This document shows, piece by piece, positions 2,936 to 42,375 of a DNA stretch of 64,000 nt (its first letter is position 1; every line of letters starts with the position of its first letter). Origin of the DNA: Escherichia virus KFS-EC3. Where the stretch lies: sequence record MZ065353.1. One strand, given 5' to 3'. The translations under genes were made by a program, and so were the position numbers. The notes beneath the pieces were generated by a model. It was not told where the DNA came from, ran no database searches, and saw nothing but the letters and a program-made list of their open reading frames with translations.

Positions 2936-3676
2936 ATGATTAGTGACTCTATGACAGTTGAAGAAATCCGTCTTCATTTGGGGCTTGCATTAAAGGAAAA
3001 AGATTTCGTAGTTGATAAAACTGGTGTTAAAACTATTGAAATTATTGGTGCATCATTTGTAGCAGATGAACCTTTTATTTTTGGCGCTCTTAATGATGAA
3101 TACATTCAACGTGAACTTGAATGGTATAAGTCTCAAAGTCTGTTTGTTAAAGATATTCCAGGTGAAACACCGAAGATTTGGCAGCAGGTAGCATCTTCTA
3201 AAGGCGAAATTAACTCGAATTATGGTTGGGCCATCTGGTCAGAAGATAACTATGCCCAGTATGATATGTGTTTAGCTGAACTTGGTCAAAATCCTGATTC
3301 TCGACGCGGTATCATGATTTATACTCGTCCATCCATGCAATTTGACTACAATAAAGATGGTATGTCAGATTTCATGTGTACGAATACAGTACAGTACCTG
3401 ATTCGTGATAAGAAAGTCAATGCGGTTGTTAGCATGAGAAGCAATGATTGCTGGGCAGGCTATCGTAATGATTATGCTTGGCAAAAATACGTACTAGATA
3501 AATTAGTATCTGATTTGAATGCAGGCGACCCATCGCGGCAATATAAAGCAGGTTCTATTATATGGAACGTTGGAAGTCTTCATGTGTACGAAAATCAGTT
3601 TTATTTAGTTGACCATTGGTGGAACACCGGTGAGACTCATATTGCTAAAAAGGATTATACTGGAAAATGGAAGTAA
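2936..3676 (+). CDS. 42: dCMP hydroxymethylase
   Basis: 246 aa, near-identical to T4 gp42 as recalled (MISDSMTVEEIRLHLG...). Confidence 0.95.
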   Translation: MISDSMTVEEIRLHLGLALKEKDFVVDKTGVKTIEIIGASFVADEPFIFGALNDEYIQRELEWYKSQSLFVKDIPGETPKIWQQVASSKGEINSNYGWAIWSEDNYAQYDMCLAELGQNPDSRRGIMIYTRPSMQFDYNKDGMSDFMCTNTVQYLIRDKKVNAVVSMRSNDCWAGYRNDYAWQKYVLDKLVSDLNAGDPSRQYKAGSIIWNVGSLHVYENQFYLVDHWWNTGETHIAKKDYTGKWK

Positions 3677-22989: not shown

Positions 22990-23250
22990 ATGAAATATGT
23001 TAATCGTTCTATCGCGGCATTAGTATTAGCAGTATCTTTAGTAGGATGTACTGATGCTGATAATGCAACCAAAGTTTTGTCTTCAAGTGGTTTTACTAAT
23101 ATTGAAATCACTGGATATAATTGGTTCGGTTGCTCTGAAAATGATTTCCAGCATACTGGATTTCGTGCTATTGGACCTACCGGGCAGAAAGTAGAAGGAA
23201 CCGTATGTTCTGGTCTATTCTTCAAGGATTCGACTATCCGTTTTAAATAA
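22990..23250 (+). CDS. predicted lipoprotein (86 aa)
   Basis: ATG-initiated signal peptide with lipobox LVGC. Confidence 0.5.
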   Translation: MKYVNRSIAALVLAVSLVGCTDADNATKVLSSSGFTNIEITGYNWFGCSENDFQHTGFRAIGPTGQKVEGTVCSGLFFKDSTIRFK

Positions 23251-23251
23251 A

Positions 23252-23268
23252 AGGCCTTCGGGCCTTTA
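23252..23268 (+). terminator. terminator-like hairpin
   Basis: AGGCC-TTCG-GGCCT hairpin with short T-run. Confidence 0.45.
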
Positions 23269-23319
23269 GCTTTATGATTACCGGAGTATAATATTCCCGA
23301 AACCAAACGAGGATAAGTG

Positions 23320-25137
23320 ATGATTAAGAATGAAATTAAAATTCTGAGCGATATTGAACATATCAAAAAGCGTAGCGGCATGTACATTGGTTCTTCTGCT
23401 AATGAAATGCATGAGCGCTTTCTGTTTGGTAAATGGGAAAGTGTTCAGTATGTACCTGGTCTTGTTAAGCTTATTGATGAAATTATCGATAACTCAGTAG
23501 ATGAAGGTATTCGTACTAAGTTTAAATTCGCGAATAAAATTAATGTTACTATTAAAAACAATCAAGTAACAGTTGAAGATAACGGTCGTGGTATTCCACA
23601 AGCGATGGTTAAAACACCTACTGGTGAAGAAATTCCTGGTCCTGTTGCTGCCTGGACTATTCCAAAAGCAGGTGGTAACTTTGGTGATGATAAAGAACGC
23701 GTCACTGGCGGTATGAATGGTGTTGGTTCTAGTTTAACTAACATTTTTTCTGTGATGTTTGTTGGTGAAACTGGCGACGGTCAAAATAATATTGTAGTTC
23801 GTTGTTCAAATGGCATGGAAAATAAATCATGGGAAACTATTCCTGGAAAATGGAAAGGAACTCGTGTTACTTTCATTCCTGATTTTATGTCATTTGAAAC
23901 TAATGAGCTATCTCAAGTTTATCTTGACATTACACTGGATCGTCTCCAGACACTTGCAGTAGTTTATCCTGATATTCAATTTACCTTTAACGGTAAAAAG
24001 GTTCAGGGTAATTTTAAGAAATATGCACGCCAATATGATGAGCATGCTATCGTTCAAGAACAGGAAAACTGTTCTATTGCGGTCGGTCGTTCACCCGACG
24101 GTTTTCGTCAATTAACATACGTTAATAACATTCATACTAAGAATGGTGGCCATCACATTGACTGTGTTATGGATGATATTTGTGAAGACCTTATTCCACA
24201 AATCAAACGTAAATTTAAAATTGACGTAACTAAAGCACGTGTTAAAGAATGTTTGACTATCGTTATGTTTGTTCGTGATATGAAAAACATGCGATTTGAT
24301 TCTCAGACTAAAGAGCGTTTGACTTCTCCATTTGGTGAAATTCGTAGTCATATTCAGCTTGATGCTAAAAAGATTTCACGTGCTATTTTAAATAATGAAG
24401 CAATTTTAATGCCAATTATTGAAGCTGCTTTGGCTCGTAAATTGGCGGCAGAAAAAGCAGCAGAAACTAAAGCAGCTAAAAAGGCTTCTAAAGCTAAGGT
24501 TCATAAACATATTAAAGCGAATCTTTGTGGTAAAGATGCTGACACGACTCTTTTCTTGACTGAGGGTGATTCTGCTATCGGATATCTTATTGATGTTCGT
24601 GATAAAGAACTTCATGGTGGTTATCCATTACGTGGTAAAGTTCTCAACAGTTGGGGTATGTCATATGCTGATATGCTTAAAAATAAAGAACTGTTTGATA
24701 TTTGCGCAATCACTGGATTAGTTCTTGGTGAAAAGGCTGAAAACTTAAATTATCATAATATTGCCATTATGACTGACGCTGACCATGATGGTCTAGGAAG
24801 CATTTATCCTTCTCTGCTCGGATTTTTTAGTAATTGGCCAGAACTGTTTGAACAAGGAAGAATTCGCTTTGTCAAAACTCCTGTAATCATCGCTCAGGTC
24901 GGTAAAAAACAAGAATGGTTTTATACAGTCGCTGAATATGAGAGTGCCAAAGATGCTCTACCTAAACATAGCATCCGTTATATTAAAGGACTTGGCTCTT
25001 TGGAAAAATCTGAATATCGTGAGATGATTCAAAATCCAGTATATGATGTTGTTAAACTTCCTGAGAACTGGAAAGAGCTTTTTGAAATGCTCATGGGAGA
25101 TAATGCTGACCTTCGTAAAGAATGGATGAGCCAATAG
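23320..25137 (+). CDS. 39: DNA topoisomerase II large subunit (GyrB-like), unsplit gp39 (39+60 equivalent)
   Basis: 605 aa continuous ORF with ATPase and Toprim regions; no gene 60 split. Confidence 0.9.
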   Translation: MIKNEIKILSDIEHIKKRSGMYIGSSANEMHERFLFGKWESVQYVPGLVKLIDEIIDNSVDEGIRTKFKFANKINVTIKNNQVTVEDNGRGIPQAMVKTPTGEEIPGPVAAWTIPKAGGNFGDDKERVTGGMNGVGSSLTNIFSVMFVGETGDGQNNIVVRCSNGMENKSWETIPGKWKGTRVTFIPDFMSFETNELSQVYLDITLDRLQTLAVVYPDIQFTFNGKKVQGNFKKYARQYDEHAIVQEQENCSIAVGRSPDGFRQLTYVNNIHTKNGGHHIDCVMDDICEDLIPQIKRKFKIDVTKARVKECLTIVMFVRDMKNMRFDSQTKERLTSPFGEIRSHIQLDAKKISRAILNNEAILMPIIEAALARKLAAEKAAETKAAKKASKAKVHKHIKANLCGKDADTTLFLTEGDSAIGYLIDVRDKELHGGYPLRGKVLNSWGMSYADMLKNKELFDICAITGLVLGEKAENLNYHNIAIMTDADHDGLGSIYPSLLGFFSNWPELFEQGRIRFVKTPVIIAQVGKKQEWFYTVAEYESAKDALPKHSIRYIKGLGSLEKSEYREMIQNPVYDVVKLPENWKELFEMLMGDNADLRKEWMSQ

Positions 25138-25405: not shown

Positions 25406-27583
25406 ATGATTATCACCACTGAAAAAGAAACAATTCTTGGTAATGGTTCTAAATCAAAAGCATTTAGCATCACAGCGTCTCCTAAAGTATTTAAAATTCT
25501 ATCATCTGATTTGTATACAAACAAGATTCGCGCAGTAGTTCGTGAATTGATTACTAATATGATTGATGCCCATGCTCTTAATGGAAATCCTGAAAAATTT
25601 ATCATACAAGTTCCAGGACGATTAGATCCGCGATTTGTTTGCCGAGATTTTGGTCCAGGTATGAGCGATTTTGATATTCAGGGTGATGATAATTCTCCTG
25701 GGTTGTATAATTCATACTTTAGTTCATCTAAGGCTGAATCTAACGATTTCATTGGTGGATTTGGTTTAGGTTCTAAATCTCCGTTTAGTTATACTGATAC
25801 GTTCAGTATTACTTCGTACCATAAAGGTGAAATTCGCGGTTATGTAGCTTATATGGATGGTGATGGTCCACAGATTAAACCTACATTCGTAAAAGAAATG
25901 GGTCCAGACGATAAAACTGGTATTGAAATCGTAGTTCCAGTTGAAGAAAAAGACTTTAGAAATTTTGCTTATGAAGTTTCTTATATCATGCGACCATTCA
26001 AAGATTTGGCTATCATTAATGGTCTTGACCGTGAAATTGATTATTTTCCGGATTTTGATGATTATTATGGCGTAAATCCAGAAAGATACTGGCCAGATCG
26101 TGGTGGATTGTATGCTATCTATGGTGGTATTGTTTATCCTATTGATGGTGTTATTAGAGACCGTAACTGGTTAAGCATTCGCAATGAAGTGAATTATATT
26201 AAGTTTCCAATGGGTTCGTTGGATATTGCTCCATCGCGTGAAGCGCTTTCATTAGATGATCGTACTCGTAAAAATATTATTGAGCGTGTTAAAGAACTCA
26301 GTGAGCAGGCATTTAATGAAGATGTAAAACGATTTAAAGAATCTACATCTCCTCGTCATACATACCGTGAATTGATGAAGATGGGATATTCTGCTCGAGA
26401 TTATATGATTAGTAATTCGGTCAAATTCACGACTAAAAATCTGTCATATAAGAAGATGCAGAGCATGTTTGAACCTGACAGTAAGTTATGTAATGCAGGA
26501 GTTGTGTATGAAGTAAATCTTGACCCTCGACTGAAACGCATTAAGCAAAGCCATGAAACTTCAGCCGTTGCATCAAGTTATCGTCTGTTTGGTATTAATG
26601 CAACAAAAATTAATATCGTTATTGATAATATTAAAAATCGTGTTAATATTGTCCGTGGATTAGCCCATGCGTTAGATGATAAAGAATTTAATAACACTTT
26701 AAATATTCACCATAATGAACGTCTTCTGTTTATTAATCCAGAAGTAGAATCGCAAATTGATTTACTTCCTGATATTATAGCAATGTTTGAAAGTGATGAA
26801 GTTAACATTCATTATTTGTCAGAAATTGAAGCTTTAGTTAAAAGCTATATTCCGAAGGTAGTTAAAAGTAAAGCTCCTCGTCCTAAAGCTGCCACAGCAT
26901 TTAAGTTTGAAATTAAAGATGGACGGTGGGAAAAAGAGGAGTTATTTACTCTCACATCAGAAGCAGATGAAATTACTGGTTATGTAGCATACATGCATCG
27001 CTCTGACATTTTCTCTATGGATGGTACTACATCTCTTTGTAATCCATCTACGAGTATTTTGATTCGTATGGCTAATCTTATTGGCATTAATGAATTTTAT
27101 GTTATTCGTCCGCTTTTACAGAAAAAGGTAAAAGAACTCGGTCAGTGCCAATGTATTTTTGAAACTCTGCGTGATTTATATGTAGATGCTTTTGATGATG
27201 TAGATTATGATAAGTATGTAGGATATTCAAGTTCAGCTCAACGATATATTGATAAAATTATTAAGTATCCTGAACTAGATTTTATGATGAAGTACTTCAG
27301 TATAGATGATGTTTCTGAAGAATATACTCGCCTTGGTAATATGGTTAGTTCATTGCGAGGTGTATATTTCAACGGTGGAAAAGATACCATCGGTCATGAT
27401 ATTTGGACAGTAACTAATCTCTTTGATGAATTGTCACGTAATGCTTCAAAAAACAGTGATAAAATGGTTGCTGAGTTTACCAAGAAATTCCGTATTGTTT
27501 CTGACTTCATCGGATATCGCAGCTCTTTAAGTGATGATGAAGTTTCCCAAATCGCTAAAACTATGAAGGCCCTTGCGGCCTAA
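25406..27583 (+). CDS. rIIA: rIIA membrane-associated protein
   Basis: 725 aa, matches T4 rIIA length; synteny with rIIB. Confidence 0.95.
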
Positions 27584-27594
27584 TAAGGAAAATT

Positions 27595-28533
27595 ATGTAC
27601 AATATTAAATGCCTGACCAAAAACGAACAAGCTGAAATTGTTAAATTGTATTCAAGCGGTAATTATACTCAGCAGGAATTGGCTGATTGGCAAGGTGTAT
27701 CGGTTGACACAATCCGCCGTGTTTTGAAAAATGCCGAAGAAGCTGGTCGTTCTAAAGTTACTATTAGTGGTGACATTACAGTTAAAGTTAAGAGCGATGC
27801 AGTTATTGCTCCAGTTGCTAAATCTGACATTATTTGGAATGCATCTAAAAAATTCATTTCAATTACTGTTGATGGTGTAACTTATAACGCAACTCCTAAT
27901 ACTCATTCAAACTTCCAGGAAATTCTTAATCTGCTTGTTGCAGATAAACTGGAAGAAGCAGCACAAAAAATTAATGTTCGCCGTGCTGTTGAAAAATATA
28001 TTTCCGGCGATGTTCGAATTGAAGGTGGAAGTTTGTTCTATCAAAATATCGAATTGCGATCTGGTTTAGTTGATCGTATTCTTGATTCGATGGAAAAAGG
28101 TGAAAATTTTGAATTTTATTTTCCGTTCTTGGAAAATCTGTTGGAAAACCCAAGCCAAAAAGCGGTGTCTCGACTCTTTGATTTCTTGGTAGCAAATGAT
28201 ATTGAAATTACAGAAGATGGCCACTTCTATGCTTGGAAAGTAGTTCGCAGTAATTACTTCGACTGCCATTCAAATACTTTTGATAACAGTCCGGGTAAAG
28301 TAGTTAAAATGCCACGTACTCGCGTGAATGACGACGATACACAAACTTGTTCTCGTGGTTTGCATGTGTGTTCTAAATCTTATATTCGTCACTTTGGTAG
28401 TTCAACTAGTCGAGTCGTAAAAGTTAAAGTACACCCTCGCGATGTAGTATCAATTCCAATTGATTACAATGATGCTAAAATGCGTACCTGCCAATACGAA
28501 GTAGTTGAAGACGTTACTGAACAATTCAAATAA
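27595..28533 (+). CDS. rIIB: rIIB protein
   Basis: 312 aa, matches T4 rIIB length. Confidence 0.95.
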   Translation: MYNIKCLTKNEQAEIVKLYSSGNYTQQELADWQGVSVDTIRRVLKNAEEAGRSKVTISGDITVKVKSDAVIAPVAKSDIIWNASKKFISITVDGVTYNATPNTHSNFQEILNLLVADKLEEAAQKINVRRAVEKYISGDVRIEGGSLFYQNIELRSGLVDRILDSMEKGENFEFYFPFLENLLENPSQKAVSRLFDFLVANDIEITEDGHFYAWKVVRSNYFDCHSNTFDNSPGKVVKMPRTRVNDDDTQTCSRGLHVCSKSYIRHFGSSTSRVVKVKVHPRDVVSIPIDYNDAKMRTCQYEVVEDVTEQFK

Positions 28534-28564
28534 GGGCTTCGGCCCTTAACTATAAAGGAAAATT

Positions 28565-28759
28565 ATGTTAGGTTATCAAGCACGAGTAAAAGAAGAATAC
28601 GATCAGCTAATGCTCAAAATTAATGCGTTGAGCAAATTTTTAGAAAGCACAAAGTTTTTAACAGTTAATGAAGTTGAACAAGAATTACTGCTTTCACAGT
28701 TTATCTCAATGAAATCTTATGCTGACTGCTTAGAGAAAAGAATTGCGCAATTCAAATAA
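28565..28759 (+). CDS. hypothetical protein (64 aa) flanked by duplicated hairpin segment
   Basis: ORF with SD AAGGAAAATT; about 45-bp imperfect direct repeat on both sides. Confidence 0.45.
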   Translation: MLGYQARVKEEYDQLMLKINALSKFLESTKFLTVNEVEQELLLSQFISMKSYADCLEKRIAQFK

Positions 28760-28762
28760 TTA

Positions 28763-28785
28763 AAGGGCTTCGGCCCTTTTGTTTT
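28763..28785 (+). terminator. Rho-independent terminator
   Basis: AAAGGGC-TTCG-GCCCTTT hairpin plus TGTTTT; second copy of hairpin at 28532-28547. Confidence 0.55.
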
Positions 28786-28795
28786 AAGGGAAATT

Positions 28796-29125
28796 ATGAT
28801 TTATTATATGAATATCAGTGATTCCGATATAAAAGAGATTAATCTACACGGAAATCATCACGCTAACATCGTGTACTGTAACAAATTTGAGTTTGGTCAT
28901 GAAAATTTAGGATTTCTTTATTGCAATGATGTTATAGTCATGGATAAAAAGAAACTCGATGAACTTGATCGTGAATCTTTAGATGAAAATGATCGAATTT
29001 ATTATGGTACTCTTAAAGTATATAACGCTTATCTCAGTGGTAAAAAGGAAAGTCTAAATGCAGAAAACGAATCCGGGTTTACAGAGACTGTTTCAGATTC
29101 CGACATTTACCCTATCGAACAATGA
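28796..29125 (+). CDS. hypothetical protein (109 aa)
   Basis: ORF with SD AAGGGAAATT. Confidence 0.45.
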   Translation: MIYYMNISDSDIKEINLHGNHHANIVYCNKFEFGHENLGFLYCNDVIVMDKKKLDELDRESLDENDRIYYGTLKVYNAYLSGKKESLNAENESGFTETVSDSDIYPIEQ

Positions 29126-29615
29126 TTTGACTGGTGAAATGAAGATCAAAATTGCTGATACTGCAAGATACTCTTTAAAACAAAATCCAAACCAAGATAA
29201 AGCAGAAGTCATCGAAAGATGCCGTATCGCTGTGTATGCAGAGTTTTTTGTAGCAGATTGGCTGAGCGGATATGTTAACAAAGGTCAAGAGGATGTTAAT
29301 GACCCGTATACATACGCATGGGATGTATTGGCACATCCAAGATACTGTGGGCTTCGAGTAGAAGTCAAGACACATCAAACTGACTCACGCTGGATTTCTG
29401 TAACAACAGGATGCAGCGGAGAGTATCCATACGGTTCTGGAATAAATCTAGGGCCCATTCTGAATCATCAAGTCGCAGACTGTATAATTATATTCAACAC
29501 TAAAGAAATTCATCCAGGTGTCATCCAGTACACTCCGAAGTTCATTGGTGACAGAGAAGACCTTCGTAAGGTTGTAAGAAAAAGTAACTACAACGGATGG
29601 TATCTTTCCATTTAA
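29058..29615 (+). CDS. denB: endonuclease IV DenB
   Basis: 185 aa, same length and position as T4 DenB. Confidence 0.85.
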   Translation: MQKTNPGLQRLFQIPTFTLSNNDLTGEMKIKIADTARYSLKQNPNQDKAEVIERCRIAVYAEFFVADWLSGYVNKGQEDVNDPYTYAWDVLAHPRYCGLRVEVKTHQTDSRWISVTTGCSGEYPYGSGINLGPILNHQVADCIIIFNTKEIHPGVIQYTPKFIGDREDLRKVVRKSNYNGWYLSI

Positions 29616-31535: not shown

Positions 31536-31608
31536 TTTCCATAACGAACATGTGATGCAGTTCTATCGTAACAATCTTAAAACCAAAGGCGTCTTCGGAC
31601 GCCAGTGA
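31528..31608 (+). CDS. stp: Stp peptide (26 aa)
   Basis: [26 protein letters not shown] matches the T4 Stp peptide as recalled. Confidence 0.8.
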
Positions 31609-31911: not shown

Positions 31912-33240
31912 ATGCAACTGAATAATCGCGATTTAAAAAGTATCATTGATAATGAAGCATTGGCTTATGCTATGTACACGGTTGAAAATCGTGCTATCCC
32001 AAATATGATTGATGGATTTAAGCCAGTTCAACGATTTGTTATTGCTCGAGCTCTTGATTTGGCACGAGGAAATAAAGATAAGTTTCACAAACTCGCTTCT
32101 ATTGCAGGTGGTGTAGCAGACCTTGGATATCATCATGGTGAAAACTCTGCACAAGACGCAGGTGCTTTGATGGCTAATACTTGGAATAATAACTTTCCTC
32201 TGTTAGATGGTCAAGGAAACTTTGGTTCTCGTACCGTTCAAAAAGCAGCGGCAAGTCGTTATATTTTTGCTCGTGTAAGTAAAAATTTCTATAACGTATA
32301 TAAAGATACTGAATATGCTCCGGTACATCAAGATAAAGAACACATTCCGCCTGCTTTCTATTTGCCTATTATTCCTACTGTTCTTCTTAACGGTGTTTCC
32401 GGTATTGCAACTGGTTATGCAACTTACATTCTTCCTCATAGTGTTTCTTCTGTCAAGAAAGCTGTATTACAAGCTCTTCAAGGAAAGAAAGTAACTAAAC
32501 CGAAGGTAGAATTCCCAGAATTTCGCGGTGAAGTCGTTGAAATTGACGGTCAATATGAAATTCGTGGAACATATAAGTTTACTTCACGAACTCAAATGCA
32601 TATCACTGAGATTCCATATAAGTATGATCGTGAAACTTATGTGAGTAAAATCTTAGACCCGCTTGAAGATAAAGGCTTCATTACGTGGGATGATGCTTGT
32701 GGCGAGCATGGTTTTGGCTTCAAGATTAAATTCCGCAAAGAATATTCTTTGAGCGATAATGAAGAAGAACGTCATGCAAAAATTATGAAAGACTTCGGGT
32801 TGATTGAGCGTCGTTCTCAGAATATTACGGTTATTAATGAGAAAGGAAAACTACAAGTTTACGATAACGTAGTTGATTTAATTAAAGACTTTGTTGAAGT
32901 TCGTAAAACTTATGTCCAAAAACGAATTGATAATAAAATTAAAGAAACTGAGTCAGCTTTTCGTTTAGCTTTTGCCAAGGCACATTTCATTAAGAAAGTA
33001 ATTTCAGGTGAAATTGTTGTGCAGGGTAAAACTCGCAAAGAACTGACCGAAGAACTTTCTAAAATTGATATGTATTCTTCTTATGTTGATAAACTAGTTG
33101 GAATGAATATTTTTCATATGACTTCAGATGAAGCAAAGAAACTTGCTGAAGAAGCTAAAGCCAAAAAAGAAGAAAACGAATATTGGAAAACTACCGATGT
33201 AGTTACAGAATACACCAAAGATTTAGAGGAAATCAAATGA
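31912..33240 (+). CDS. 52: DNA topoisomerase II medium subunit gp52 (GyrA-like)
   Basis: 442 aa; matches T4 gp52 length. Confidence 0.95.
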   Translation: MQLNNRDLKSIIDNEALAYAMYTVENRAIPNMIDGFKPVQRFVIARALDLARGNKDKFHKLASIAGGVADLGYHHGENSAQDAGALMANTWNNNFPLLDGQGNFGSRTVQKAAASRYIFARVSKNFYNVYKDTEYAPVHQDKEHIPPAFYLPIIPTVLLNGVSGIATGYATYILPHSVSSVKKAVLQALQGKKVTKPKVEFPEFRGEVVEIDGQYEIRGTYKFTSRTQMHITEIPYKYDRETYVSKILDPLEDKGFITWDDACGEHGFGFKIKFRKEYSLSDNEEERHAKIMKDFGLIERRSQNITVINEKGKLQVYDNVVDLIKDFVEVRKTYVQKRIDNKIKETESAFRLAFAKAHFIKKVISGEIVVQGKTRKELTEELSKIDMYSSYVDKLVGMNIFHMTSDEAKKLAEEAKAKKEENEYWKTTDVVTEYTKDLEEIK

Positions 33241-37712: not shown

Positions 37713-37742
37713 TAAAAATCCTTAGAGGGCCGAAGCCCTCTT

Positions 37743-42347: not shown

Positions 42348-42370
42348 AAAAAGGGAACCCGAAGGCTCCC
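42348..42370 (-). terminator. Rho-independent terminator after gene 35
   Basis: Minus-strand hairpin GGGAGCC-TTCG-GGTTCCC followed by TTTTT. Confidence 0.55.
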
Positions 42371-42375
42371 TCAAT

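Follow-up and report, generated by a model that had tools for sequence, protein, structure and literature searches.

The rIIB gene of Escherichia virus KFS-EC3 (MZ065353.1) is followed by an ORF of 64 codons that lies between two similar segments containing a stop codon, a UUCG-loop hairpin, and the translation initiation site of the next gene. The first-pass annotation described these segments as an imperfect direct repeat of about 45 bp and read them as the footprint of a cassette inserted or duplicated by recombination at a terminator hairpin. The locus raises the question of whether the repeat records the arrival of the small ORF or has another origin, and it was analyzed in a window of 64,000 nucleotides (the whole stretch of DNA under study) and in related phage genomes. 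Coordinates are collected in Table 1.

Table 1. Features of the rIIB-denB.1 region, with positions counted from the first nucleotide of the window.
Feature	Positions	Strand	Description
rIIA/rIIB junction module	27567..27597	+	Hairpin AGGCC-CTTGC-GGCCT, closing on the T of the rIIA stop (27581-27583)
rIIB CDS	27595..28533	+	312 aa, ends ...TEQFK-TAA; rIIB in homologous records; N-terminal HTH Pfam matches
Repeat copy 1	28522..28567	+	Last three codons and stop of rIIB CAATTCAAATAA, hairpin, SD AAGGA 28555-28559, denB.1 ATG 28565-28567
Hairpin 1	28531..28548	+	TAAGGGC-UUCG-GCCCUUA, 7-bp stem, loop 28538-28541
denB.1 CDS	28565..28759	+	64 aa; PF21825 (crAss001_48-related), phrog_774
Repeat copy 2	28748..28798	+	Last three codons and stop of denB.1 CAATTCAAATAA, TT spacer, hairpin, U-tract
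Hairpin 2 and U-tract	28762..28785	+	AAAGGGC-UUCG-GCCCUUU then UGUUUU, loop 28769-28772
Repeat copy 2, 3' part		+	SD AAGGG 28786-28790, ATG of the 109-aa ORF 28796-28798
109-aa ORF	28796..29125	+	DUF7418, phrog_2237; overlaps start of denB (29058-29615)

Composition of the repeated segments

The final 12 nt were identical in rIIB (CAA TTC AAA TAA) and the 64-aa ORF, bearing out the shared QFK-stop ending reported in the first-pass annotation. This 12-mer, CAATTCAAATAA, had exactly two copies in 64 kb (28522-28533 and 28748-28759) against an expectation of 0.06, and at least two copies were reached in 0/100 shuffles. The only two occurrences of AAGGGCTTCGGCCCTT likewise lay around the 64-aa ORF, and GGGCTTCGGCCC was found at 28534 and 28765 plus one minus-strand copy at 37727 (0.00 expected in the 64-kb window). 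A repeat search returned an ungapped 45-nt repeat of 78% identity (28532-28576 and 28763-28807), with the exact 12-mer in addition. Gapped local alignment of 70-nt modules scored 29 for copy 1 against copy 2, compared with a maximum of 19 for all other pairs among the eight UUCG hairpins of the window (stem of at least 6 bp) and 7.9 ± 2.0 for copy 1 against random 70-mers of the window. The imperfect direct repeat of the first-pass annotation was thus recovered, and it exceeded chance. Copy 2 carries an extra 5-nt spacer (TTAAA) from the stop codon to the hairpin, and the 3' flanks are unlike (TTAACTATAA in copy 1 and TTTTGTTTT in copy 2). The perfect 12-mer identity is peculiar to KFS-EC3 and a few other phages; the majority of other Tequatrovirus sequences have TTT in one 12-mer and TTC in the other, a single synonymous difference.

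The repeat ends 3' with a Shine-Dalgarno (SD) sequence and start codon, AAGGAAAATTATG in copy 1 and AAGGGAAATTATG in copy 2. The general form of this part, AAGGRAAATTATG, had seven matches with at most one mismatch in the window vs. 0.68 expected, including one at the rIIA/rIIB junction where a GC hairpin is followed by AAGGAAAATTATG (27585-27597), the same initiation region as before denB.1. Both copies do share the SD-ATG part, as first noted, but AAGGRAAATTATG is a common translation-initiation consensus and therefore gives no evidence of duplication. The same grammar recurred at the rIIA/rIIB junction, in the gap between genes 37 and 38 (37724-37741, minus strand; genes identified by size), and at 31588. 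The segments bracketing the 64-aa ORF are copies of a standard T-even intercistronic module composed of a stop codon, a C(UUCG)G hairpin, and the initiation consensus. The GC hairpin of the rIIA/rIIB junction also appeared in the terminator scan as a minus-strand image.

Form and conservation of the hairpins

Each segment folded as a 7-bp stem capped by a UUCG loop (minimum free energy -10.9 kcal/mol for hairpin 1 and -11.4 kcal/mol for hairpin 2). The folding z-scores were unremarkable (-1.2 and -0.4) because the hairpin makes up only 18 nt of the 65-69-nt segments. Hairpin 1 has the rIIB stop codon at the foot of its 5' arm and no U-tract on its 3' side, and hairpin 2 looks like an intrinsic terminator, i.e., a GC-rich stem and then a U-tract. 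A plus-strand terminator scan called hairpin 2 (28762-28779 plus TGTTTTAAGG) and did not call hairpin 1. Independent annotators marked hairpin 1 as a putative terminator in MK327944 and hairpin 2 as a terminator in MK327944, Merlin, and Moon. The placement of the repeat at terminator-type UUCG hairpins in both copies, as originally proposed, was consistent with these results. An Rfam search of 28300-29000 (E ≤ 1) gave two chance-level matches far under the gathering scores, and a literature search on transcript ends near rIIB-denB found no Term-seq data for T4.

Hairpin 1 was identified in six lineages (Tequatro-, Dhaka-, Gapriver-, Kanagawa-, and Winklervirus and Klebsiella phage Biddle) with stems of GGGC, GGAGGC, GGGGC, GGGGA, and GGAGAC, and hairpin 2 in Tequatro-, Moon-, and Winklervirus with stems of GGGC, GCCC, and GGCC. 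The T-run after hairpin 2 was present in Moonvirus and absent in Winklervirus. In an alignment of 15 pooled hairpins, 91.4% of the cells were paired and 6/7 pairs varied on both sides, a covariation reached in 0/500 shuffles, and slid controls were 27-69% paired. The loop was UUCG in 13/15 aligned hairpins, with UUUG (L015) and CUUG (Biddle) in the others; both copies present C-UUCG-G on the plus (coding) strand, and the loop was always on the coding strand across genera. Conservation of structure is thereby shown: from genus to genus, the hairpins lie on the sense (mRNA) strand and the changes in their stems are compensatory. We infer that both are old and predate Tequatrovirus.

Both are classic T4 intercistronic C(UUCG)G hairpins, a class first discovered in T4 mRNA (Tuerk et al., 1988, as reported in PMC4371310). 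The two hairpins here have the UUCG loop, C-G closing pair, short GC stem, sense-strand orientation, intercistronic position, and extraordinary stability for their size of that class, and do not depart from it in any essential. New relative to this class are that two members form a longer direct repeat reaching into the flanking coding ends and that covariation of both hairpins is shown across genera. From their form and conservation, the hairpins would act at the RNA level, with hairpin 2 as a putative partial intrinsic terminator and both as candidate barriers to 3' exonucleases that would define and stabilize the upstream message. They may also serve as folding insulators keeping the next SD free. 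Compared with Rho-independent terminators, hairpin 2 has the GC-rich stem followed by UUUUGUUUU, whereas hairpin 1 has no U-tract; because the genes around both hairpins are tightly packed in one polycistronic block, termination should be partial at most.

Age and distribution of denB.1

The 64-aa ORF was 90-93% identical at the nucleotide level to the annotated denB.1 of T4, ime09, and others, the gene carrying this name in T4, ime09, and JS98. Its product matched PF21825 over residues 4-61 (69.5 bits; gathering threshold 24.8) and phrog_774 (E = 6.5e-23), and gave no match to NCBIfam and no relative among PDB sequences (best E = 0.32). The AlphaFold model (pLDDT 95.8) is an antiparallel two-helix hairpin, and DenB.1, an uncharacterized protein, is accordingly predicted to be a helical hairpin. 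Foldseek comparison of the model with the PDB gave generic helical hairpins only (E > 0.6), from which no functional inference was drawn. A single paper mentioning denB.1 was found, a genome announcement.

The gene occurred in all of ~500 Tequatrovirus genomes, and the order rIIB-denB.1-DUF7418 ORF-denB was common to these and to six further Tevenvirinae lineages. The position was the same, with divergent flanks, in Dhaka-, Gapriver-, Kanagawa-, Winkler-, and Moonvirus and in a Klebsiella T4-like phage. Universal presence with divergent flanks, the pattern that the first-pass annotation had named as speaking against its own reading, was thus what the genomes displayed. No second or relocated denB.1 was seen in T-even genomes, each record having it in one place. 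Protein-pattern searches and an exact DNA-pattern search of IMG/VR and metagenomes gave a small sample (8, 5, and 6 loci), all of the typical Tequatrovirus/Moonvirus type. In the T-even rIIA-rIIB-denB.1-DUF7418-denB block, denB.1 is a small early gene that is old and conserved. Family members were also found in N4-like Klebsiella phages, crAss-like Bacteroides phages, and a Sinorhizobium phage. A tblastn match under an annotated 678-aa "RIIB" in the N4-like Klebsiella phage OY978778 prompted the idea that denB.1 is a detached rIIB domain; this fission was dropped, as the annotated range translates to stop-ridden nonsense and the record annotation is mis-registered. In OY978778 and PP848842, the family is represented by a free-standing 67-70-aa ORF beside the virion RNA polymerase region.

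The first-pass annotation also advised searching related phages for rIIB followed directly by the downstream ORF, and one genus has this arrangement. RB69 and 153/156 Mosigvirus records have rIIB, a single hairpin, a T-run, an SD, and the DUF7418 ORF without denB.1; orthologs of the DUF7418 ORF are 3' of denB.1 in other genera and directly 3' of rIIB in RB69. No Mosigvirus was among the tblastn matches of two different DenB.1 queries. Simple NJ trees of single proteins with midpoint rooting, one of rIIB and one of DenB, placed Mosigvirus inside the denB.1-bearing clade, and the absence is therefore best read as a deletion rather than a pre-insertion state. It looks like a deletion between the two modules: the direct repeats would be substrates of the T4 recombination system, and exchange between them would give the Mosigvirus arrangement as the expected product. 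Assignment of the RB69 hairpin to one copy by flank similarity had an ambiguous outcome. Among the closest relatives, its 3' flank matched copy 2 at 19/25 and copy 1 at 12-15/25 positions, yet it was equally close to hairpin-1 flanks of distant genera (Winklervirus, 19/25), so that the crossover point cannot be placed. A synthetic deleted junction (3' end of rIIB, one hairpin, and ORF109) was compared with 50,697 phage records, and the predicted deletion was found in 0 of ~508 Tequatrovirus records; every top match was split in two parts ~228 nt apart, with denB.1 present in all. The repeat is consequently not demonstrably recombinogenic today.

Origin of the repeat and related systems

The sequence repeat extending into the last codons was confined to Tequatrovirus. 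Outside this genus, denB.1 ends in ...F-stop in five lineages and the Gaprivervirus rIIB ends in EQF-stop, and in Tequatrovirus both genes have an extra AAA codon ahead of TAA. In phage EPIMAM01, copy 2 has the copy-1 form (TTT codon, spacer absent), giving 26 identical nt. The restriction of the repeat to Tequatrovirus suggests short-patch recombination or gene conversion between the modules, a reading supported by the EPIMAM01-type variant. In the Tequatrovirus lineage, exchange between the hairpin modules would have homogenized the stem and the last codons until both genes ended in QFK-TAA, leaving a direct repeat of ~45-50 bp at a spacing of 231 bp. The homogenized stretch is short and is interrupted in copy 2 by the variable spacer. 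The Tequatrovirus-specific event is the homogenization of two pre-existing hairpin modules and not acquisition of the ORF, and the repeats are probably ordinary T-even gene punctuation partly homogenized by recombination. The whole account, comprising an old denB.1, punctuation hairpins, homogenization in Tequatrovirus, and a deletion between modules in Mosigvirus, is held here with moderate confidence.

Pure functional convergence, by which the modules are alike through constraint, the copies did not recombine, and the Mosigvirus deletion is unrelated, appears rather unlikely even though part of the similarity could arise in this way. The SD-ATG consensus is common to rIIB itself and four other near-matches, and the gap between genes 37 and 38 independently has the same 12-nt stem-loop. 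Gapriver- and Dhakavirus show that "QF" belongs natively to rIIB, as a C-terminal F does to the denB.1 family, N4-like phages included. Native QF and F, together with the small number of GC-rich 4-mers such as GGGC, mean that the identity is possibly in part coincidence and functional constraint. The 3' flanks of the two copies are not orthologous to each other, each having its ortholog in the corresponding flank of other genera, and Winklervirus has both hairpins without the sequence repeat. Against convergence, the two copies score 10 points over all other hairpin modules, an identical extra AAA codon was gained by both genes only in Tequatrovirus, and copy 2 of EPIMAM01-type phages received the synonymous TTT together with loss of the spacer, a joint change that argues for a conversion tract rather than point mutation.

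Insertion of denB.1 as a cassette at the rIIB terminator hairpin, or its duplication across it, with the repeat as footprint, is improbable. The direct repeat does enclose exactly one promoter-less ORF, a whole genus (Mosigvirus) has an "empty site" with a single hairpin, and the T-rich hairpin-1 3' flanks of distant genera resemble the hairpin-2 flanks as though from an ancient duplication. DenB.1-family ORFs in unrelated phage groups also imply horizontal movement of the gene at some time. These observations are opposed by the constant position in seven Tevenvirinae lineages with divergent flanks, by the nesting of the empty-site genus within denB.1-bearing genera, by a repeat restricted to Tequatrovirus around a much older ORF, and by the single location of denB.1 in T-even genomes. 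The old position, the nested empty site, and the younger repeat exclude a recent insertion; of the original proposal, the repeat at terminator-type hairpins and the suggested check for an empty arrangement are borne out, and only an insertion in a deep Tevenvirinae ancestor, at the root of the subfamily, may have occurred. A further, improbable reading is that the hairpin modules double as crossover sites, denB.1 plus one hairpin looping out as a 231-bp circle able to re-enter similar hairpins. If true, it would amount to PeSL-like or integron-like shuffling with terminator hairpins as att-like sites, possibly involving a structure- or GGGC-specific phage nuclease, and would explain both the precise loss in Mosigvirus and denB.1-family genes in N4-like and crAss-like phages.

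Translational recoding or coupling is highly improbable as the reason for the arrangement. By this explanation, ribosomes would hop from AAA at 28528-28530 to the in-frame AAA at 28559-28561 to give a rIIB-DenB.1 fusion, or would terminate and reinitiate with stop and start brought close to each other by the hairpin. AAA-TAA does lie at the hairpin base with an AAA three nt before the denB.1 ATG in the denB.1 frame, typical Tequatrovirus sequences have the same arrangement, and a UUCG hairpin whose 5' arm contains a stop codon resembles the take-off site of T4 gene 60. The AAA, however, belongs to the generic initiation consensus and is out of frame at copy 2; the Dhakavirus rIIB stop lies 9-10 nt ahead of the hairpin after a last codon of TAC or CGT with no matching landing codon, and rIIB and denB.1 overlap without a hairpin in Moonvirus. 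A gene 60-type bypass and reinitiation were both rejected, the arrangement being absent in Dhaka-, Gapriver-, Kanagawa-, and Moonvirus and hence not conserved.

The favored account, homogenized punctuation modules with a deletion in Mosigvirus, places the locus close to the promoter-early stem-loops (PeSLs; Arbiol et al., 2010, PMC2839356; Comeau et al., 2014, PMC4122927). Repeated stem-loop cassettes of this kind mediate ORF deletion and insertion in T4-type phages (PMC2839356, PMC4122927). Both systems have a repeated composite module (a stem-loop, which in PeSLs acts as a terminator, with SD and ATG) flanking small non-essential ORFs in hyperplastic regions, and the PST/T4 example (ndd.4/ndd.5) comes from the same D region, a few genes further downstream. 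Exchange between neighboring PeSL copies forms mini-circles and deletes or inserts the enclosed ORF; loss of the ORF is here proposed from the Mosigvirus arrangement. A stem-loop is present in both copies here, with a U-tract in copy 2 only. Unlike PeSLs, which have a sigma-70-like or T4 early promoter (-35, N17, -10) between stem-loop and SD, the module has no promoter, a scan of the plus strand between hairpin and ATG giving no promoter-like site in either copy; with only 6-8 nt from hairpin to SD (6 nt in copy 1 and 6 nt after the stem in copy 2) and no promoter, the enclosed ORF does not form a transcription unit of its own. The repeat further differs in continuing upstream into the stop codon and last codons, and the ORF in being invariant within a genus (~500 Tequatrovirus genomes) and absent in Mosigvirus. 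GGGC/GCCC motifs occur at T4 deletion endpoints (Mosig, Colowick and Pietz, 1998, as cited in PMC2839356), for which, according to that citation, a hypothetical sequence-specific protein was proposed. Exact inverted repeats of GGGC...GCCC make up the stems here, and they bound the apparent deletion in one genus; the cited cases are laboratory deletions in the 56-dda region, whereas the deletion here is deduced from genomes.

Current understanding is not overturned by these findings. They extend the PeSL idea to promoter-less modules, tie it to the GGGC/GCCC motifs at T4 deletion endpoints, and add covariation support for two specific C(UUCG)G hairpins in seven Tevenvirinae lineages. DenB.1 emerges as a stable partner of the rII-denB block that is dispensable in the RB69 group. 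A pair of conserved RNA hairpins that punctuate an early operon also serve as short direct repeats, and the arrangement in one genus is exactly the product expected from exchange between them, providing a clean, datable example of T-even phages losing, and perhaps gaining, small accessory genes.

Locus and conservation of denB.1

The repeat lay in the rII-D region of a T-even phage of the genus Tequatrovirus. A 1.5-kb query around it matched 511 phage records (~93-94% identity), nearly all Escherichia, Shigella, or Yersinia Tequatrovirus, and homologous records name the 64-aa ORF denB.1 (T4 NP_049888, ime09, and JS98). Its product belonged to Pfam PF21825 (crAss001_48-related; 69.5 bits vs. 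cutoff 24.8) and phrog_774, and is predicted with high confidence (pLDDT 95.8) to form an antiparallel two-helix hairpin, for which structure and PDB sequence searches found no informative structural or PDB relative. Gene 39 of the window fused the T4 gp39 and gp60 parts, without the T4 mobA insertion or gene 60 bypass element.

Features of the window around the repeat (ORFs in ORF-list order) and related hairpins
Feature	Position	Strand	Description
UUCG hairpin before gene 39	23250-23267		AAAGGCC-TTCG-GGCCTTT, then ...GGAGTATAAT; PeSL-like
gene 39, fused	23317-25137		606 aa, single ORF; first listed
67-aa ORF			between gene 39 and rIIA
rIIA	25406-27583
rIIA/rIIB junction	27567-27597		GC hairpin AGGCC-CTTGC-GGCCT, then AAGGAAAATTATG as at denB.1
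rIIB	27595-28533
Copy 1 (hairpin 1)	28522-28567 (28531-28548)		rIIB end/denB.1 start
denB.1	28565-28759		64-aa ORF
Copy 2 (hairpin 2 + U-tract)	28748-28798 (28762-28785)		denB.1 end/DUF7418 ORF start
DUF7418 ORF	28796-29125		109 aa
denB	29058-29615
Small D-region ORFs			followed by gene 52
gene 52	at 31912
Third exact GGGCTTCGGCCC hairpin	37724-37741	minus	AGAGGGC-TTCG-GCCCTCT, then AAGGATTTTTAATG
UUCG hairpin	42351-42372	minus	GAGGGAGCC-TTCG-GGTTCCCTT, then TTTCTTTATAAATA

denB.1 is not variable: the 195-nt ORF was found full length at 88-93% identity in 496 records and the protein at ≥80% identity in 496 records, while a synthetic junction without denB.1 gave two-piece alignments only and retrieved no ORF-less junction. 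The order rIIB-denB.1-DUF7418 ORF-denB also held in six lineages outside Tequatrovirus, namely Dhakavirus (JS98, Bp7, and 04086), Gaprivervirus (P479 and TH57), Kanagawavirus (PEi20), Winklervirus (Vettismorki), Moonvirus (Merlin, Moon, and CF1), and the Klebsiella T4-like phage Biddle. The first-pass annotation had suggested a cassette inserted or duplicated by recombination; a recent insertion is refuted on that annotation's own terms by an ORF universally present with divergent flanks.

In Escherichia phage 04086 (98-1264), rIIB encoded 388 aa compared to 312-324 aa in relatives and ended ...DQFKSDLR; it is thus extended, internally or at the C-terminus, relative to JS98 and Bp7. A DenB.1-like domain within RIIB of Klebsiella phage vB_Kpn_K60PH164C1 (OY978778.1) was rejected, as the annotated "RIIB lysis inhibitor" translates stop-ridden; the CDS coordinates of this record do not match open reading frames and its annotation seems to be out of register with the sequence, giving a false impression of such a domain. 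The DUF7418 ORF was intact between denB.1 and denB in the window and cut in T4 (minus strand 3160-3240) to a short in-frame remnant (ATGATTTATATGAATATCGGTGATTCCGACATAAAGGAAAGTTTAAATG...) by a deletion joining two short AAAAG(A/G) repeats (window ~28833 and ~29043). A query with its first 195 nt was ≥80% covered in only 94/508 Tequatrovirus records and, from coverage alone, the deleted form may be the commoner one.

The repeat and its hairpins

Window pattern counts and alignment upheld a repeated module, with 12-mer and hairpin pairs bracketing the 64-aa ORF. The 12-mer CAATTCAAATAA occurred exactly twice in the window (0.06 expected by chance) as the final 12 nt of rIIB and denB.1, so that the identical last codons and stop reported earlier for both genes were confirmed. 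GGGCTTCGGCCC directly followed each 12-mer and had one further site (0.00 expected). The repeat search returned a 45-nt repeat of 78% identity plus the exact 12-mer, with a 5-nt spacer offsetting the second copy. The local alignment score was 29 for the 70-nt modules of copies 1 and 2 and ≤19 for every other pairing of the window's eight UUCG hairpins that have stems ≥6 bp, against a background of 7.9 ± 2.0 for random 70-mers. When folded, both copies form 7-bp stems capped by C(UUCG)G, with the rIIB stop codon at the base of the 5' arm in copy 1. The repeat is real and non-random, and its components were already known.

The resemblance is in part generic. The initiation region AAGGRAAATTATG is likewise found ahead of rIIB itself (27585-27597) and occurred seven times in the window with ≤1 mismatch (0.68 expected). 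The rIIA/rIIB hairpin encodes the last rIIA residues and closes on the T of the rIIA stop codon; because this junction has both elements, three operon junctions in a row combine a stop-codon hairpin with an identical initiation region. The order stop, CUUCGG hairpin, ribosome-binding site (SD), and ATG recurred at 31588 and between genes 37 and 38, where the third GGGCTTCGGCCC hairpin separates a 1298-aa ORF from a 261-aa glycine-rich ORF that by size and composition resemble the gene for the long tail fibre (gene 37) and an adhesin of the gene 38 type, a locus known to undergo modular exchange. The 23250-23267 and 42351-42372 hairpins were both long and upstream of promoter-like sequences, TATAAATA within TTTCTTTATAAATA being late-promoter-like.

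A UUCG-type hairpin occupied the rIIB/denB.1 spacer in six lineages with differing yet complementary stems: Tequatrovirus (AAGGGC/GCCCTT), Dhakavirus (GGAGGC/GCCTCC), Gapriver- and Kanagawavirus (GGGGC/GCCCC), Biddle (GGGGA-CTTG-TCCCC), and Winklervirus (AAGGAGAC/GTCTCCTT); Moonvirus had none there, its rIIB and denB.1 overlapping. The denB.1/next-ORF spacer held a hairpin in three genera (Tequatrovirus, AAAGGGC/GCCCTTT + TGTTTT; Moonvirus, AAAGCCC/GGGCTTT + TTCTTT; Winklervirus, AAGGCC/GGCCTT), replaced in the remaining lineages by a 0-8 nt junction. In a pool of 15 different hairpins, 91.4% of cells were paired and both sides changed in 6/7 pairs, a covariation reached by 0/500 shuffles (slid controls, 27-69% paired). 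Both hairpins are old and conserved as structures, and the sequence repeat is lineage-specific because Winklervirus has both hairpins without it. In the Tequatrovirus contigs L015 and L018 (IMG/VR), hairpin 1 had a UUUG rather than UUCG loop and another 3' flank (TTATCACATTAAGG or TTATCGCATTAAGG), so that this genus is polymorphic for the upstream module.

The UUCG loop was on the coding strand in every case, which points to a role in RNA. As RNA elements, the modules are ordinary members of the C(UUCG)G hairpin class first found in T4 mRNA (PMC4371310). The region matched no Rfam family. Of the two supposed terminator hairpins, the terminator scan supported the intrinsic-terminator form for hairpin 2 but not hairpin 1; independent annotators labeled both putative terminators (MK327944; also Merlin and Moon).

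Likeness of the copies and the Mosigvirus junction

Four points suggest exchange between copies 1 and 2: the two are more alike than other hairpin modules are; an extra AAA stands before TAA in both Tequatrovirus genes, compared with DenB.1 C-termini ...RIA(K/R)F, ...RIQRF, ...RINRF, and ...RILRF plus stop among Kanagawavirus, Biddle, Moonvirus, and N4-like phages and a Gaprivervirus rIIB ending ...TEQF-stop; copy 2 has a GGGC stem like that of copy 1, with GCCC or GGCC in the copy-2 orthologues; and EPIMAM01 copy 2, without spacer and with the copy-1-typical TTT codon, gives 26 identical nt, a form that from span length appears in at least three other phages. Short-patch recombination between two old hairpin modules would then have homogenized them locally in Tequatrovirus, which we regard as the probable course. 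Constraint plus coincidence is a rather unlikely source of the likeness, even though the homogenized stretch is short, copy 2 is interrupted by a variable spacer (TTAAA, TTAAG, AATAAG, AATAA, AAGA, ATAA, or none), each 3' flank is orthologous to its own counterpart in other genera, and most Tequatrovirus sequences show a single synonymous difference between the 12-mers.

The proposed comparison with relatives lacking the ORF was borne out in the Mosigvirus RB69, where rIIB (...ELFAE-TAA) is followed by a single hairpin, TAATT-GGGGAC-TTCG-GTCCCC-TTTTTTCTTTAGGGGTAATT-ATG, the DUF7418 orthologue ORF272c, and denB, with denB.1 absent. The 613-nt RB69 junction aligned in one piece in 153/156 Mosigvirus records, and no Mosigvirus was among 666 (Tequatrovirus query) and 692 (Dhakavirus query, E ≤ 1) tblastn matches. 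Neighbor-joining trees of rIIB and of DenB placed RB69 among Tequatro-, Dhaka-, Gapriver-, or Moonvirus, inside the denB.1-bearing set, so that a single loss explains the pattern more parsimoniously than multiple gains. The RB69 architecture of stop, one hairpin, T-run, SD, and ATG is the expected remnant of an exchange between the two modules. The RB69 3' flank matched copy 2 of its nearest relatives at 19/25 and copy 1 at 12-15/25 positions; as it matches the Winklervirus copy-1 flank equally well, the crossover is not placeable from the flanks.

Relation to known recombination cassettes

The closest described system is the promoter-early stem-loop (PeSL) cassette of T4-type phages, a repeated module of stem-loop, promoter, SD, and ATG that flanks small ORFs in hyperplastic regions and recombines to give ORF deletion or insertion and mini-circles (Arbiol et al., 2010; Comeau et al., 2014; PMC2839356, PMC4122927). 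About half of 13 T4 deletions studied by Mosig involved GGGC, at times paired with GCCC (cited in PMC2839356), the exact stem of the window hairpins. In contrast to PeSLs, the window modules lack the defining internal promoter because the hairpin-SD gap is only ~6 nt, and by analogy they may at best be PeSL-like as recombination substrates, not family members. That such promoter-less hairpin-bounded cassettes move as mini-circles seems very doubtful. The cassette insertion first proposed thus gives way to an old gene between two old hairpins, probably homogenized locally, and deleted in one genus.
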